From Escherichia coli (lineage in GTDB: Bacteria; Pseudomonadota; Gammaproteobacteria; Enterobacterales; Enterobacteriaceae), in assembly GCF_003790525.1 (NCBI RefSeq), contig NZ_CP033635.1: a stretch of DNA of 64,000 bases; one strand, given 5' to 3'. This document shows positions 10,838 to 46,727 of this stretch, piece by piece. Below the pieces are notes generated by a model, which saw nothing but the letters and a program-made list of their open reading frames with translations, ran no database searches and was not told the DNA's origin. The number at the start of each line of letters is the position of its first letter. Position 1 is the first letter of the stretch. A program made the translations under genes and the position numbers.

Positions 10838-10945
10838 TGCCGGATGCGGCTTAAACGCCTTATCCGGCCTACAAATTCTTCCAAATTCAATATATTGCAG
10901 AAATGATGTAGGCCTGATAAGCGTAGCGCATCAGGCAATTTTTAA
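10838..10945. repeat. REP/BIME palindromic elements between convergent ysaA and avtA
   Basis: tgccggatgcggc…gccttatccggcctaca and inverted tgtaggcctgataagcg…gcatcaggca REP-type sequences. Confidence 0.75.
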
Positions 10946-21046: not shown

Positions 21047-22369
21047 ATGCAAGCCTATTTTGACCAGCTCGATCGCGTTCGTTATGAAGGCTCAAAATCC
21101 TCAAACCCGTTAGCATTCCGTCACTACAATCCCGACGAACTGGTGTTGGGCAAGCGTATGGAAGAGCATTTGCGTTTTGCCGCCTGCTACTGGCACACCT
21201 TCTGCTGGAACGGGGCGGATATGTTTGGTGTGGGGGCGTTTAATCGTCCGTGGCAGCAGCCTGGTGAGGCACTGGCGTTGGCGAAGCGTAAAGCAGATGT
21301 CGCATTTGAGTTTTTCCACAAGTTACATGTGCCATTTTATTGCTTCCACGATGTAGATGTTTCCCCTGAGGGCGCGTCGTTAAAAGAGTACATCAATAAT
21401 TTTGCGCAAATGGTTGATGTCCTGGCAGGCAAGCAAGAAGAGAGCGGCGTGAAGCTGCTGTGGGGAACTGCTAACTGCTTTACAAACCCTCGCTATGGCG
21501 CGGGTGCGGCGACGAACCCAGATCCTGAAGTCTTCAGTTGGGCGGCAACGCAAGTTGTTACAGCGATGGAAGCAACCCATAAATTGGGCGGTGAAAACTA
21601 TGTCCTGTGGGGTGGTCGTGAAGGTTACGAAACGCTGTTAAATACCGACTTGCGCCAGGAGCGTGAACAGCTGGGCCGCTTTATGCAGATGGTGGTTGAG
21701 CATAAACATAAAATCGGTTTCCAGGGCACGTTGCTTATCGAACCGAAACCGCAAGAACCGACCAAACATCAATATGATTACGATGCTGCGACGGTCTATG
21801 GCTTCCTGAAACAGTTTGGTCTGGAAAAAGAGATTAAACTGAATATTGAAGCTAACCACGCGACGCTGGCAGGTCACTCTTTCCATCATGAAATAGCCAC
21901 CGCCATTGCGCTTGGCCTGTTCGGTTCTGTCGACGCCAACCGTGGCGATGCGCAACTGGGCTGGGACACCGACCAGTTCCCGAACAGTGTGGAAGAGAAT
22001 GCGCTGGTGATGTATGAAATTCTCAAAGCAGGCGGTTTCACCACCGGTGGTCTGAACTTCGATGCCAAAGTACGTCGTCAAAGTACTGATAAATATGATC
22101 TGTTTTACGGTCATATCGGCGCGATGGATACGATGGCGTTGGCGCTGAAAATTGCAGCGCGCATGATTGAAGATGGCGAGCTGGATAAACGCATCGCGCA
22201 GCGTTATTCCGGCTGGAATAGCGAATTAGGCCAGCAAATCCTGAAAGGCCAAATGTCACTGGCAGATTTAGCCAAATATGCTCAGGAACATAATTTGTCT
22301 CCGGTGCATCAGAGTGGTCGCCAGGAGCAACTGGAAAATCTGGTAAATCATTATCTGTTCGACAAATAA
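21047..22369 (+). CDS. xylA: xylose isomerase
   Basis: ATG at 21047 gives 440 aa starting [16 protein letters not shown]. Confidence 0.95.
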
Positions 22370-41346: not shown

Positions 41347-43038
41347 ATGAGATACATCAAATCGATTACACAGCAGAAGCTGAGCTTTTTGCTTGCAATC
41401 TATATTGGCCTTTTTATGAATGGCGCGGTTTTTTACCGCCGCTTCGGCAGCTATGCGCACGATTTTACCGTCTGGAAAGGTATTTCTGCTGTTGTTGAAC
41501 TGGCCGCCACCGTACTGGTGACCTTCTTTTTACTGCGTCTTCTTTCGCTGTTTGGCCGCCGCAGCTGGCGTATTCTGGCATCGCTGGTGGTGCTCTTTTC
41601 CGCAGGTGCCAGCTATTACATGACCTTCCTTAATGTAGTCATTGGTTATGGCATCATCGCATCCGTCATGACCACCGATATCGACCTGTCAAAAGAAGTT
41701 GTTGGTCTGAACTTTATTCTCTGGTTAATCGCCGTAAGCGCGTTGCCTCTTATCCTTATCTGGAATAACCGCTGTCGTTACACCTTGCTCCGACAACTGC
41801 GAACCCCAGGGCAGCGTATTCGCAGCCTGGCGGTCGTCGTACTGGCAGGTATTATGGTTTGGGCACCGATTCGTTTGCTGGATATCCAGCAGAAGAAAGT
41901 GGAGAGGGCGACAGGTGTTGATTTGCCGAGTTATGGCGGCGTCGTCGCGAACTCTTATCTGCCATCAAACTGGCTTTCGGCATTAGGTCTTTATGCCTGG
42001 GCGCGGGTCGATGAATCTTCCGATAACAATTCTCTCCTTAACCCTGCGAAGAAGTTTACGTACCAGGCTCCACAAAACGTTGATGATACATATGTCGTTT
42101 TCATTATTGGTGAAACCACGCGCTGGGATCATATGGGCATTTTCGGCTATGAACGCAATACCACACCGAAACTGGCTCAGGAGAAAAATCTGGCGGCGTT
42201 CCGTGGTTACTCCTGTGATACTGCAACCAAACTCTCACTGCGTTGCATGTTTGTACGTCAGGGTGGAGCAGAAGATAATCCGCAGCGCACATTAAAAGAA
42301 CAGAATATTTTCGCGGTGCTGAAGCAGTTAGGATTCACTTCTGATCTCTACGCTATGCAAAGCGAAATGTGGTTCTACAGCAATACGATGGCGGACAACA
42401 TTGCTTATCGTGAGCAGATTGGTGCGGAGCCACGTAACCGTGGCAAACCGGTAGATGATATGTTGCTGGTAGACGAAATGCAGCAGTCGCTGGGGCGCAA
42501 CCCGGATGGTAAGCATCTGATCATTCTGCATACCAAAGGCTCACACTTTAACTACACCCAGCGTTACCCGCGCAGCTTTGCGCAGTGGAAGCCGGAATGT
42601 ATTGGTGTTGATAGCGGCTGTACCAAAGCGCAGATGATCAACTCATACGACAACTCGGTGACCTATGTGGATCACTTTATTTCCAGCGTGATTGATCAGG
42701 TTCGCGATAAGAAAGCGATTGTGTTCTATGCAGCTGACCACGGTGAGTCAATTAATGAACGCGAGCACCTGCACGGCACGCCGCGTGAACTGGCACCGCC
42801 GGAACAGTTCCGTGTGCCGATGATGGTCTGGATGTCGGATAAATATCTGGAAAATCCGGTCAATGCGCAGGCATTTGCGCAGCTGAAAAAAGAAGCCGAC
42901 ATGAAAGTGCCACGCCGTCATGTAGAGCTGTACGACACCATCATGGGGTGTCTTGGCTATACTTCACCGGATGGTGGAATTAACGAAAACAACAACTGGT
43001 GCCACATCCCGCAGGCAAAAGAGGCAGCGGCTAACTAA
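41347..43038 (+). CDS. eptB: Kdo2-lipid A phosphoethanolamine transferase
   Basis: ATG at 41347 gives 563 aa starting [19 protein letters not shown]; membrane domain plus sulfatase-like domain. Confidence 0.92.
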
Positions 43039-43088
43039 GAAGCCTGCTGACTTTCTCGCCGATCAAAAGGCATTTTGCTATTAAGGGA

Positions 43089-43117
43089 TTGACGAGGGCG
43101 TATCTGCGCAGTAAGAT
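43089..43117 (+). promoter_or_regulatory. proK promoter (sigma70 -35 TTGACG, 17 bp spacer, -10 TAAGAT, GC-rich discriminator)
   Basis: ttgacg at 43089..43094 and taagat at 43112..43117, followed by gcgccccgc before the tRNA 5' end. Confidence 0.7.
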
Positions 43118-43129
43118 GCGCCCCGCATT

Positions 43130-43206
<77 letters not shown>

Positions 43207-43214
43207 AATTCGAA

Positions 43215-43241
43215 AAGCCTGCTCAACGAGCAGGCTTTTTT
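43215..43241 (+). terminator. rho-independent terminator of proK
   Basis: aagcctgct-caacg-agcaggctt followed by ttttttg. Confidence 0.85.
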
Positions 43242-43296
43242 GCATCTGTAGCTCATGAGGAAGAGAACCCCCGGGGGCGGGGAGGTTCGATTCGAC

Positions 43297-43385
43297 GTAG
43301 GCCTGATAAGACGCGCCAGCGTCGCATCAGGCAAATGTACCGGCCCATTGTCGGATGCGGCGCGACCGCCTTATCCGATCTACAC
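43297..43385. repeat. REP/BIME palindromic element pair
   Basis: gtaggcctgataagacgcg…gcatcaggca and …tcggatgcggcgcgaccgccttatccgatctaca. Confidence 0.7.
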
Positions 43386-43899
43386 ACCACACATTTCCCT
43401 GCCAAATTTGCGCCCCATATCTCACTATCCATTAACGGATTTGTGACAGAAACCATTGTCTTTTTTTATATTTGCTTAAATCTTTTTTTGCGTTACTTAT
43501 GGCTGGCGCTGGCATTTTCCGCTGTGCGTTTTAGCGTTCATGGTATTAATCGCTCAGATATCCACCTTTACCTCAGATTTTTTTCATTAAATGCATAAAA
43601 CTTAATCACCAAATGTTGCTAAATATTAAGCTGATTGTTCTGGTTGTGTTGGCGTAGCACAAATTTCTCTGCTGCAAATAGCTGTTTGAAGTTTTTTTAA
43701 TCTTTGTTTGTGGATTCTCACCGTTGGTGTAAATCCCGGTTGGCTGTATTGACGTTTTCACATTCTGTTGACAGATTGTAGGTCACGAGGGGCATTTTAT
43801 GGAGGATCCGCACTGTTACACTGATGTTAATTAGTACGGCATCCCCACCTCATAACGTTGACCCGACCGGGCAAAAAACAAAAAAGGTCAGGCAGCGAC

Positions 43900-43940
43900 A
43901 ACCCACTGCAAAGGGTTAAAACAACAAACATCACAATTGG
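43900..43940 (+). promoter_or_regulatory. C/A-rich segment of the dppA 5' leader (GcvB sRNA target-type sequence)
   Basis: aaaacaacaaacatcacaatt immediately upstream of the dppA RBS. Confidence 0.55.
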
Positions 43941-43949
43941 AGCAGAATA

Positions 43950-45557
43950 ATGCGTATTTCCTTGAAAAAGTCAGGGATGCTGAAGCTTGGTCTCAGCCTG
44001 GTGGCTATGACCGTCGCAGCAAGTGTTCAGGCTAAAACTCTGGTTTATTGCTCAGAAGGATCTCCGGAAGGGTTTAACCCGCAGCTGTTTACCTCCGGTA
44101 CCACCTATGACGCCTCTTCCGTACCGCTTTATAACCGCCTGGTTGAATTTAAAATCGGCACCACCGAAGTGATCCCGGGCCTCGCTGAAAAGTGGGAAGT
44201 CAGCGAAGACGGTAAAACCTATACCTTCCATCTGCGTAAAGGTGTGAAGTGGCACGACAATAAAGAATTCAAACCGACGCGCGAACTGAACGCCGATGAC
44301 GTGGTGTTCTCGTTCGATCGTCAGAAAAACGCGCAAAACCCGTACCATAAAGTTTCTGGCGGCAGCTACGAATACTTTGAAGGCATGGGCTTGCCGGAGC
44401 TGATCAGCGAAGTGAAAAAGGTGGACGATAACACCGTTCAGTTTGTGCTGACTCGCCCGGAAGCGCCGTTCCTCGCTGACCTGGCAATGGACTTCGCCTC
44501 TATTCTGTCAAAAGAATATGCTGACGCGATGATGAAAGCCGGTACACCGGAAAAACTGGATCTCAACCCAATCGGTACCGGCCCGTTCCAGTTACAGCAG
44601 TACCAGAAAGATTCCCGTATTCGCTATAAAGCGTTTGATGGCTACTGGGGCACCAAACCGAAGATCGATACGCTGGTCTTCTCTATTACTCCTGACGCTT
44701 CCGTGCGTTACGCGAAATTGCAGAAGAACGAATGCCAGGTGATGCCGTACCCGAACCCGGCAGATATCGCCCGCATGAAGCAGGATAAATCCATCAACCT
44801 GATGGAAATGCCGGGGCTGAATGTCGGTTATCTCTCGTATAACGTGCAGAAAAAACCACTGGATGACGTGAAAGTTCGCCAGGCTCTGACCTACGCGGTG
44901 AACAAAGACGCCATCATCAAAGCAGTTTATCAGGGCGCGGGCGTATCAGCGAAAAACCTGATCCCGCCAACCATGTGGGGCTATAACGACGACGTTCAGG
45001 ACTACACTTACGATCCTGAAAAAGCGAAAGCCTTGCTGAAAGAAGCGGGTCTGGAAAAAGGTTTCTCCATCGACTTGTGGGCAATGCCGGTACAACGTCC
45101 GTATAACCCGAACGCTCGCCGCATGGCGGAGATGATTCAGGCAGACTGGGCGAAAGTCGGCGTGCAGGCCAAAATCGTCACCTACGAATGGGGTGAGTAC
45201 CTCAAGCGTGCGAAAGATGGCGAGCATCAGACGGTAATGATGGGCTGGACTGGCGATAACGGGGATCCGGATAACTTCTTCGCCACCCTGTTCAGCTGCG
45301 CCGCCTCTGAACAAGGCTCCAACTACTCAAAATGGTGCTACAAACCGTTTGAAGATCTGATTCAACCGGCGCGTGCTACCGACGACCACAATAAACGTGT
45401 TGAACTGTACAAACAAGCACAGGTCGTGATGCACGATCAGGCTCCGGCACTGATCATCGCTCACTCCACCGTGTTTGAACCGGTACGCAAAGAAGTTAAA
45501 GGCTATGTGGTTGATCCATTAGGCAAACATCACTTCGAAAATGTCTCTATCGAATAA
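43950..45557 (+). CDS. dppA: dipeptide ABC transporter periplasmic binding protein
   Basis: 535 aa with signal peptide. Confidence 0.96.
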   Translation: MRISLKKSGMLKLGLSLVAMTVAASVQAKTLVYCSEGSPEGFNPQLFTSGTTYDASSVPLYNRLVEFKIGTTEVIPGLAEKWEVSEDGKTYTFHLRKGVKWHDNKEFKPTRELNADDVVFSFDRQKNAQNPYHKVSGGSYEYFEGMGLPELISEVKKVDDNTVQFVLTRPEAPFLADLAMDFASILSKEYADAMMKAGTPEKLDLNPIGTGPFQLQQYQKDSRIRYKAFDGYWGTKPKIDTLVFSITPDASVRYAKLQKNECQVMPYPNPADIARMKQDKSINLMEMPGLNVGYLSYNVQKKPLDDVKVRQALTYAVNKDAIIKAVYQGAGVSAKNLIPPTMWGYNDDVQDYTYDPEKAKALLKEAGLEKGFSIDLWAMPVQRPYNPNARRMAEMIQADWAKVGVQAKIVTYEWGEYLKRAKDGEHQTVMMGWTGDNGDPDNFFATLFSCAASEQGSNYSKWCYKPFEDLIQPARATDDHNKRVELYKQAQVVMHDQAPALIIAHSTVFEPVRKEVKGYVVDPLGKHHFENVSIE

Positions 45558-45570
45558 TTAAAAGCCATAC

Positions 45571-45612
45571 CCGGTGGCGCTGTGCCTCTGCGTGCAGCGC
45601 CATCCGGCAGCA
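45571..45612 (+). terminator. REP-like stem-loop in the dppA-dppB intergenic region (likely attenuator/mRNA stabiliser)
   Basis: tggcgctg-tgcctctgcgtg-cagcgcca palindrome. Confidence 0.5.
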
Positions 45613-45707
45613 ATACTTCATTCCCTGTCCCACAAGGGCGGGAATTGATTTGTGAGCAATACAGACACGCAGTTCCAGGCTGCGGGTCATTATAGAGAAT
45701 CCGGGTT

Positions 45708-46727
45708 ATGTTGCAGTTTATTCTCCGACGTTTGGGACTCGTCATCCCCACGTTTATCGGTATTACCCTTCTCACATTTGCCTTTGTCCACATGATCCCG
45801 GGCGATCCGGTGATGATCATGGCGGGCGAGCGTGGGATCTCCCCAGAGCGTCACGCGCAATTGCTGGCTGAACTCGGCTTAGATAAACCGATGTGGCAGC
45901 AGTATCTCCATTACATTTGGGGCGTAATGCACGGTGATTTAGGCATTTCCATGAAAAGCCGAATTCCGGTATGGGAAGAGTTCGTGCCGCGCTTTCAGGC
46001 TACGCTGGAACTTGGCGTCTGCGCGATGATTTTTGCGACGGCAGTCGGTATTCCGGTTGGTGTGCTGGCTGCGGTTAAACGTGGTTCCATTTTCGATCAC
46101 ACAGCGGTTGGCCTGGCGCTGACCGGCTACTCGATGCCAATTTTCTGGTGGGGCATGATGCTGATCATGCTGGTTTCGGTGCACTGGAACCTGACGCCTG
46201 TCTCCGGTCGTGTGAGCGACATGGTGTTCCTCGATGATTCCAATCCGTTAACCGGTTTTATGCTGATCGACACCGCCATCTGGGGTGAAGACGGTAACTT
46301 TATCGATGCCGTCGCCCATATGATCCTACCCGCCATTGTGCTGGGTACCATCCCGCTGGCGGTCATTGTGCGTATGACGCGCTCCTCGATGCTGGAAGTG
46401 CTGGGCGAAGATTATATCCGCACCGCGCGTGCCAAAGGTCTTACCCGGATGCGGGTGATTATCGTCCATGCGCTGCGTAACGCGATGCTGCCGGTGGTGA
46501 CCGTTATCGGCCTGCAGGTGGGAACATTGCTGGCGGGGGCGATTCTGACTGAAACCATCTTCTCGTGGCCCGGTCTGGGGCGTTGGTTGATTGACGCACT
46601 GCAACGCCGCGATTATCCGGTAGTGCAGGGCGGCGTATTGCTGGTGGCGACGATGATTATCCTCGTCAACCTGCTGGTCGATTTGCTGTACGGCGTGGTG
46701 AACCCGCGTATTCGTCATAAGAAGTAA
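45708..46727 (+). CDS. dppB: dipeptide ABC transporter permease
   Basis: 339 aa. Confidence 0.95.
   Translation: MLQFILRRLGLVIPTFIGITLLTFAFVHMIPGDPVMIMAGERGISPERHAQLLAELGLDKPMWQQYLHYIWGVMHGDLGISMKSRIPVWEEFVPRFQATLELGVCAMIFATAVGIPVGVLAAVKRGSIFDHTAVGLALTGYSMPIFWWGMMLIMLVSVHWNLTPVSGRVSDMVFLDDSNPLTGFMLIDTAIWGEDGNFIDAVAHMILPAIVLGTIPLAVIVRMTRSSMLEVLGEDYIRTARAKGLTRMRVIIVHALRNAMLPVVTVIGLQVGTLLAGAILTETIFSWPGLGRWLIDALQRRDYPVVQGGVLLVATMIILVNLLVDLLYGVVNPRIRHKK

Follow-up and report, generated by a model that had tools for sequence, protein, structure and literature searches.

Structures behind the binding-protein cistron of ABC importer operons are a described means by which that cistron is stabilised, with malEFG and four other ABC systems as examples (PMC5927463). 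Precise RNA 3' ends that follow a stable stem without a U-tract have also been reported and were attributed to protection from exonucleases, i.e., PNPase and RNase II (Dar and Sorek 2018, PMC6061677). For iscRSUA, the account in PMC12533949, which cites Desnoyers et al. 2009 (PMC2693151), describes RyhB-induced differential degradation together with a protective intergenic structure. At the dpp operon itself, GcvB was shown to repress a dppA::gfp fusion via the dppA 5' UTR (Urban and Vogel 2007, PMC1807950).

The small RNA RyhB has also been connected with dpp, and the connection concerns only part of the operon. Among 31 operons with a RyhB-dependent fall in RNA, dppBCDF was listed and not dppABCDF; the loss of dppBCDF RNA seen in fur mutants is reversed in fur ryhB mutants, an effect that was drawn at the operon level from transcriptome data and was mostly about 2-fold (Beauchene et al. 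2015, PMC4676285). The same paper mentions oppBCDF, again without the binding-protein gene, with possible RyhB effects. In an iron-restriction time course of Salmonella, dppB, dppD, and dppF were down at the first time point and dppA was unchanged, which is circumstantial (PMC5428311). DppD and DppF were recently found to carry one essential [4Fe-4S] cluster each (2025 cryo-EM, PMC12136057).

In this study, the spacer between dppA and dppB was analysed in a 64-kb stretch of Escherichia coli DNA, called the window below; coordinates refer to the window, and the features of the dpp locus lie on its plus strand. In a partial literature search, no paper was found that describes this spacer, and none that defines a RyhB site in it. 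We lean towards reading the spacer as a composite region for post-transcriptional control, in which an upstream functional half has a stabilising hairpin and a downstream one a conserved complement of RyhB. The GcvB site upstream of dppA is already known, the hairpin is known in kind, and the RyhB motif in the spacer is so far undescribed.

Layout of the dppA-dppB spacer

The coding sequence of dppA (43950-45557), a periplasmic dipeptide-binding protein of 535 aa, ends with the stop codon TAA at 45555-45557, and that of dppB (45708-46727), the first gene of the dppBCDF translocator segment, begins with ATG at 45708. Both assignments come from the list of open reading frames and from the annotation of matching E. 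coli genomes. When a 501-nt query spanning the junction was compared by BLAST with 5,426 complete E. coli genomes, 5,422 of them matched (95-100% identity), and their annotation names the flanks dppA and dppB. The spacer (45558-45707) is exactly 150 nt, and RNA folding of a 181-nt region spanning it predicted three hairpins (z = -2.9), which confirms the original prediction of a structured 150-bp spacer between dppA and dppBCDF. No promoter was found within the spacer by a promoter scan, and an Rfam scan of 43000-46500 at E <= 10 returned nothing within the spacer, the RyhB motif and the third hairpin included.

Hairpin 1 and the RNA 3' end

Hairpin 1 (45571-45607) was defined by folding, copy number, and arm alignment. 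Its arms, tggcgctg and cagcgcca, extend to a GC-rich stem of 15 bp (45571-45585 with 45592-45607), which includes two G-U pairs and a bulged U at 45603 and closes a loop of 6 nt. The hairpin is 37 nt long and extragenic, in a 3' position, with 13 unpaired nt between the dppA stop and the stem. Its predicted stability of -27.3 kcal/mol, compared with -16.0 +/- 2.6 kcal/mol for dinucleotide shuffles (z = -4.4), was reached by none of the 200 shuffles. A palindrome directly after the dppA stop, at 45571-45612, had been predicted earlier; the stem is real, although 13 nt intervene and the range overshoots the stem end at 45607 by 5 nt.

In K-12, a steady-state RNA 3' end maps beside this stem. The curated Term-seq table of Adams et al. 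(2021, PMC7815308), which covers three growth conditions, lists MG1655 3705889 on the minus strand three times. When the coordinate was checked on NC_000913.3, it was the final A of CCAUCCGGC-A, which corresponds to 45609 in the window, 2 nt past the last paired base. The position was transferred from a strain with a longer allele of the spacer (see below) to the short allele of the window, and the two are nearly identical in alignment from hairpin 1 onward. The sequence downstream of the end is GCAAUACUUC, without a U-tract; likewise, no U-rich tract was seen 3' of the hairpin, where the flank is CAGCAAUACUUC, and hairpin 1 was not called by a consensus terminator scan. A region of Rho termination is placed by the same table at MG1655 3705667, about 45831 in the window and inside dppB, with a marginal score of 2.06 (PMC7815308).

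Strong hairpins behind dppA are common to the family. In each of the 78 distinct spacers of Enterobacteriaceae, a hairpin at least as stable as -17 kcal/mol (the median being -35) separates the dppA stop from the conserved motif described below, and the palindromes that form them are not homologous between lineages.

REP ancestry and a BIME polymorphism

With a 47-nt query, hairpin 1 was found at a median of 1 place per genome, and at 3 places at the highest, across 5,421 E. coli genomes; no further copies occurred in the 64-kb window at up to 3 mismatches. The GTAG/CTAC head is absent from 45560-45615, and a search with the head GTAGGCCKGATAAG detected true REPs at 10859, 10908, 43297, and 43370 and none at hairpin 1. 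As a single-copy element without the GTAG/CTAC head, hairpin 1 was rejected as an active member of the REP family. At the same site, an inverted, GTAG-bearing REP doublet is present in Trabulsiella, Leclercia, Lelliottia, Superficieibacter, Pluralibacter, and Citrobacter, with the form ...GGCGCTxCGCTT..GGCCTAC-GTAGGCCGGGTAAGCGxAGCGCCACCCGGCAGCAGTGCTT. The arms of hairpin 1 and its unique flank GCAGCAATACTTCATTCC align to the outer halves of this doublet, with about 27 central alignment columns missing, and the 16-mer at the head of hairpin 1 recurs elsewhere in two loci. Judged from these alignments, hairpin 1 is probably a REP-derived, internally deleted, and immobile remnant of a REP doublet, so that the term REP-like used for it earlier would be right for its ancestry and is not for its present identity. 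A canonical BIME, in contrast to hairpin 1, is present upstream of dppA, where a proK-like tRNA gene (43130-43203) is followed by a REP pair at 43297-43383 that matches Rfam naRNA4 above threshold (70.5 bits, minus strand).

The spacer is also polymorphic within E. coli. In K-12 and strain FEX669, as well as in E. albertii, an extra 157 bp flanked by CATAC lies between the dppA stop and hairpin 1. This insert, a BIME of two REPs, scores 47 bits against Rfam ES036 and has a partial match to naRNA4. Its insertion point, placed by alignment with FEX669 and K-12, is the CATAC at 45566-45570, and the insert is absent in the window. The long allele was found in 3,249 of 5,423 E. coli genomes (about 60%) and the short allele, as in the window, in about 40%. 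The polymorphism shifts hairpin 1 from 13 nt to 170 nt past the stop codon; in the short allele 13 nt separate the stop from the stem, vs. about 37 nt before the first REP of the long one. More generally, the stretch directly behind the dppA stop is a hotspot of palindromic repeats that are unrelated across the Enterobacteriaceae loci. Besides REP doublets, elements of the type CCCTCTCCC...GGGAGAGGG are found there in Klebsiella, Raoultella, and Enterobacter; Buttiauxella, Yersinia, and Entomohabitans have large insertions. The last ~60 nt before dppB are fixed.

The role of hairpin 1

The original prediction had offered two functions for the palindrome, a partial terminator or a 3' stabiliser. 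A leaky intrinsic (Rho-independent) terminator, at which some of the RNA polymerases leaving dppA would stop, would fit a stable, GC-rich stem-loop placed right after a highly expressed gene, and also the K-12 RNA 3' end that maps beside it. However, the flank CAGCAAUACUUC offers no U-tract, the terminator scan picks hairpin 2 instead, and an end 2 nt past a stem is the pattern of processed ends (PMC6061677); this reading is most unlikely and the terminator part of the prediction was rejected. It could also be argued that hairpin 1 is a neutral fossil of a mobile element in a permissive spacer, with an incidental 3' end and no effect on the stoichiometry of Dpp, as its arms align with halves of a REP doublet at the orthologous site, unrelated palindromes litter the 5' half of the spacer in different genera, and some E. 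coli strains but not others have a further BIME at that spot. On the other hand, every lineage keeps at least one strong hairpin in spite of the sequence turnover, the end at the base of the stem is reproducible (listed three times in the three-condition table), and 4,784 of 5,422 E. coli records have hairpin 1 at 99% identity or more, the last being a weak sign of selection given the low divergence within the species. We regard a neutral fossil as unlikely, though less so than a terminator. A different possibility concerns the short allele only. Liang, Rudd, and Deutscher reportedly proposed in 2015 that REPs within 15 nt of stop codons impede terminating ribosomes, and the 13 nt between stop and stem (~37 nt for the first REP of the long allele) would place hairpin 1 in that range, where it would lower the output of DppA. 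However, hairpin 1 does not qualify as a canonical REP, the arrangement of the short allele occurs in about 40% of strains, and DppA is a very abundant protein in E. coli, which makes such an impediment very unlikely.

Because the stem is stable, the 3' end lies 2 nt past it, and there is no U-tract, hairpin 1 is accepted here as a probable 3' stabiliser of the dppA segment, which agrees with the second function that had been predicted and with the pattern described in PMC6061677. In the folding model it is predicted to be the first strong barrier for an exonuclease arriving from downstream, hairpins 3 and 2 having only about -13 kcal/mol each vs. -27.3 kcal/mol. We infer that hairpin 1 would block 3'-to-5' exonucleases, so that transcripts which end or are cut downstream would be trimmed to its base. 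Rho-dependent termination early in dppB could be one source of such downstream ends, and endonucleolytic cleavage within the spacer another. The product would be a stable monocistronic dppA mRNA ending at 45609, from which the binding protein could be made in excess over the membrane and ATPase subunits. Neither dppA nor dppB appears in the differential-decay tables of PMC5927463. Understood in this way, hairpin 1 would be an ordinary device by which a single operon yields binding protein in excess of transporter; the 3' end at its base was already public data.

The 5' end of dppA

A C/A-rich target of GcvB had been predicted upstream of the dppA ribosome-binding site, and it is confirmed by complementarity and by the published repression. 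The site, just upstream of the ribosome-binding site in the dppA 5' UTR (43920-43939, AACAACAAACAUCACAAUUG), pairs almost continuously with region R1 of GcvB (nt 62-84 of K-12 gcvB), with a perfect core of 10 nt, or 13 nt when G-U pairs are counted. Given this site and the evidence for a 3' stabiliser, it is fair to say, as the original prediction did, that dppA is controlled at the RNA level at both ends.

A very abundant RNA 3' end was also noticed in this region, at MG1655 3707800, which corresponds to 43855 in the window, 95 nt before the dppA ATG (Adams et al. 2021). It is not Rho-dependent by score, and its counts of about 0.8-3.5 million are more than 10-fold those at 45609. The end implies an abundant dppA 5' UTR fragment of about 70 nt, whose 3' terminus precedes the GcvB site.

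The conserved 3' half of the spacer

For the analysis of conservation, 80 loci of Enterobacteriaceae were found with DppA and their spacers were extracted. The 5' half of the spacer turns over freely across these loci. By contrast, the last ~60 nt are near-invariant bar one stem and read UUUGUGAGCAAUACAGAC, hairpin 3, and GUCAYUAnAGAGAAUCCGGGUU-AUG, the last part including the near-invariant translation-initiation region of dppB in the alignments (45689-45707, AYUAnAGAGAAUCCGGGUU). The original prediction had missed this conserved half, with its RyhB-complementary motif and covarying hairpin, as well as the 157-bp BIME polymorphism.

Hairpin 2 (45618-45648; -13.2 kcal/mol, z = -2.8) is followed by UUUGUG and looks like a weak terminator in the terminator scan. 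Its structure is kept across genera and its sequence is not, different stems being found at the same place. No curated Term-seq end at hairpin 2 was present among the rows retrieved from the table of PMC7815308.

Hairpin 3 (45664-45688; -12.7 kcal/mol, z = -3.9) is a covarying stem-loop between the RyhB motif and the ribosome-binding region of dppB. Covariation was assessed by explicit pair counting in an ungapped alignment of 32 sequences, in which compensatory changes are seen at 8 of the 11 pairs; 88% of cells are paired, vs. 26-50% with slid partners. On four of five measures the observed value was reached by 0/500 shuffles, and on the fifth by 4/500. RNAalifold gave no structure on the raw 80-sequence MAFFT alignment, in which two outlier loci introduce gap columns.

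Several other functions of the conserved motif were tried and rejected. A sigma-70 promoter for dppB fits poorly by eye, and the promoter scan was empty there; half-sites of CRP or FNR fit poorly by eye as well. GcvB as the partner of the motif was also rejected, as only 7 nt are complementary.

A candidate RyhB site

Within the near-invariant block UUUGUGAGCAAUACAGAC lies UGUGAGCAAU (45651-45660), a perfect complement of nt 41-50 of K-12 RyhB with 10 contiguous Watson-Crick pairs. The duplex recurs in the minimum free energy structure when the two RNAs are cofolded, and the motif region has a mean unpaired probability of 0.56-0.71. The motif is 48-57 nt upstream of the dppB AUG, which is too far for simple occlusion of the ribosome-binding site.

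Since 10-mer complements of the RyhB core number 4 in the 64-kb window, which is about the chance expectation, the match alone is not significant and as a sequence match proves nothing. The other three are at 21348(-), 23360(+), and 33337(-). The comparison between species is a different matter. In 88 spacers from Enterobacteriaceae, Erwiniaceae, Serratia, and Dickeya, with complementarity scored against K-12 RyhB, at least 10 nt of complementarity were found in 80; with 200 shuffled cores the mean was 0.2 and the maximum 10. In other families the flanks change in the RyhB register, and the complementary segment is 12 nt in Serratia (UGUGAGCAAUGU), 12 nt in Dickeya (GUGAGCAAUGUC, RyhB nt 38-49), 11 nt in Erwinia (AUGUGAGCAAU), and 10 nt, in a shifted position, in Pantoea (UGAGCAAUGU). 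The motif is degenerate in Yersinia enterocolitica, and in Morganellaceae it is absent from the spacers of Xenorhabdus, Photorhabdus, and Moellerella. These statistics are counts of exact complements, which were preferred to RNAduplex; with full-length RNAs the latter returned uninformative whole-molecule duplexes and no significance (P = 0.03 with full RyhB, 0.25 with its core).

A second, weaker contact with RyhB was seen in the cofold, in which 45705-45712 (GUUAUGUU) pairs with RyhB nt 33-40 over the dppB start codon and hairpin 3 is looped out; it is a hint only. If this contact is true, the site would be bipartite, and translational repression from a distal core site could be explained.

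The conservation of the motif could have a cause other than RyhB. The block UUUGUGAGCAAUACAGAC and hairpin 3 may serve as an RNase E processing site (GA|UUU) whose hairpin would stabilise dppBCDF at the 5' end, as a site for Hfq or another protein, as the target of another small RNA, or as a translational enhancer or standby site for the weak ribosome-binding site of dppB. Such a role would be in keeping with an AU-rich single strand between hairpins that fits the RNase E motif RN|WUU (PMC5927463), with a hairpin 3 that covaries on its own account, and with the chance frequency of the RyhB 10-mer in the window. However, the flanks in distant families do not drift but extend or shift the complementarity in the RyhB register. 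The independent reports of RyhB-dependent loss of dppBCDF RNA, together with the Fe-S clusters of DppD and DppF, give a specific rationale for RyhB, and these alternatives would not conflict with an action of RyhB by way of RNase E. A role of the conserved block without RyhB is somewhat unlikely, yet of all the alternatives considered in this paper it deserves the most weight.

With this alternative weighed, the conserved downstream module is a credible candidate for a new RyhB target site, at chances that come close to even. The conserved core complement, the reported RyhB repression of dppBCDF only, and the Fe-S clusters of DppD and DppF suggest, by analogy, a discoordinate regulation of dpp like that of iscRSUA. 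Under iron limitation, RyhB with Hfq would pair at 45651-45660 and trigger the loss of the dppBCDF segment, and the dppA message, protected by hairpin 1, would survive. The loss of dppBCDF would spare two [4Fe-4S] clusters per transporter, those of DppD and DppF, on which the iron-sparing rationale rests. That the spacer is a conserved RyhB-responsive switch, which removes the dppBCDF message under iron starvation while dppA persists, possibly with a contact at the dppB start too, is a tentative proposal to which we give slightly less than an even chance.

If the proposal is true, it would account for the RyhB-repressed behaviour of dppBCDF but not dppA, and the Fe-S clusters recently discovered in DppD and DppF would be tied to an iron-sparing control over the uptake of peptides and haem. 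The mention of oppBCDF hints that a RyhB switch could be general for peptide ABC importers, and the oppA-oppB spacer may hold an analogous site.

Comparison with known systems

At the 5' end of dppA no difference was found from the known regulation by GcvB (Urban and Vogel 2007; Sharma 2007), the site being the same known one upstream of the Shine-Dalgarno sequence. Compared with the REPs and BIMEs of E. coli (Y and Z REPs; REPIN doublets), hairpin 1 is likewise an extragenic imperfect palindrome just 3' of a gene, and its arms resemble the REP halves ...GGCGCTG[CT]GC / GC[AG]CAGCGCCA[CT]CCGGC. It differs in being single-copy and headless and in lacking ~27 central alignment columns relative to the doublets at the orthologous site.

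The REP stabiliser between malE and malF (Newbury 1987; PMC5927463) is similar in several respects: both operons encode ABC importers with the binding-protein gene first, and both have a stable stem-loop in the spacer, an RNA 3' end at the base of the stem, and an expected excess of the binding protein. However, the dpp stem is a probable relic of unique sequence and not a canonical REP. K-12-type dpp does have true REPs further upstream, without a curated 3' end. With the exonuclease-protected ends of PMC6061677, the dpp site shares a precise end past a stable stem without a U-tract and a Rho region downstream, in this case inside dppB; it differs in being internal to the operon and not at its terminus, and the downstream Rho score is only 2.06.

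The closest parallel for the spacer as a whole could be iscRSUA, as far as that system is described in PMC12533949. In both cases a RyhB site, a candidate one in dpp, lies between cistrons 1 and 2, a strong structure would protect the upstream cistron, and the downstream genes are tied to the use of Fe-S. By that description, RyhB pairs in isc at the translation-initiation region of iscS, whereas the match in dpp is 48-57 nt upstream of the start codon with a hairpin in between. If RyhB does pair in the dppA-dppB spacer, dpp would be the second clear case, after iscRSUA, of a small RNA splitting a polycistronic mRNA at a structured spacer.
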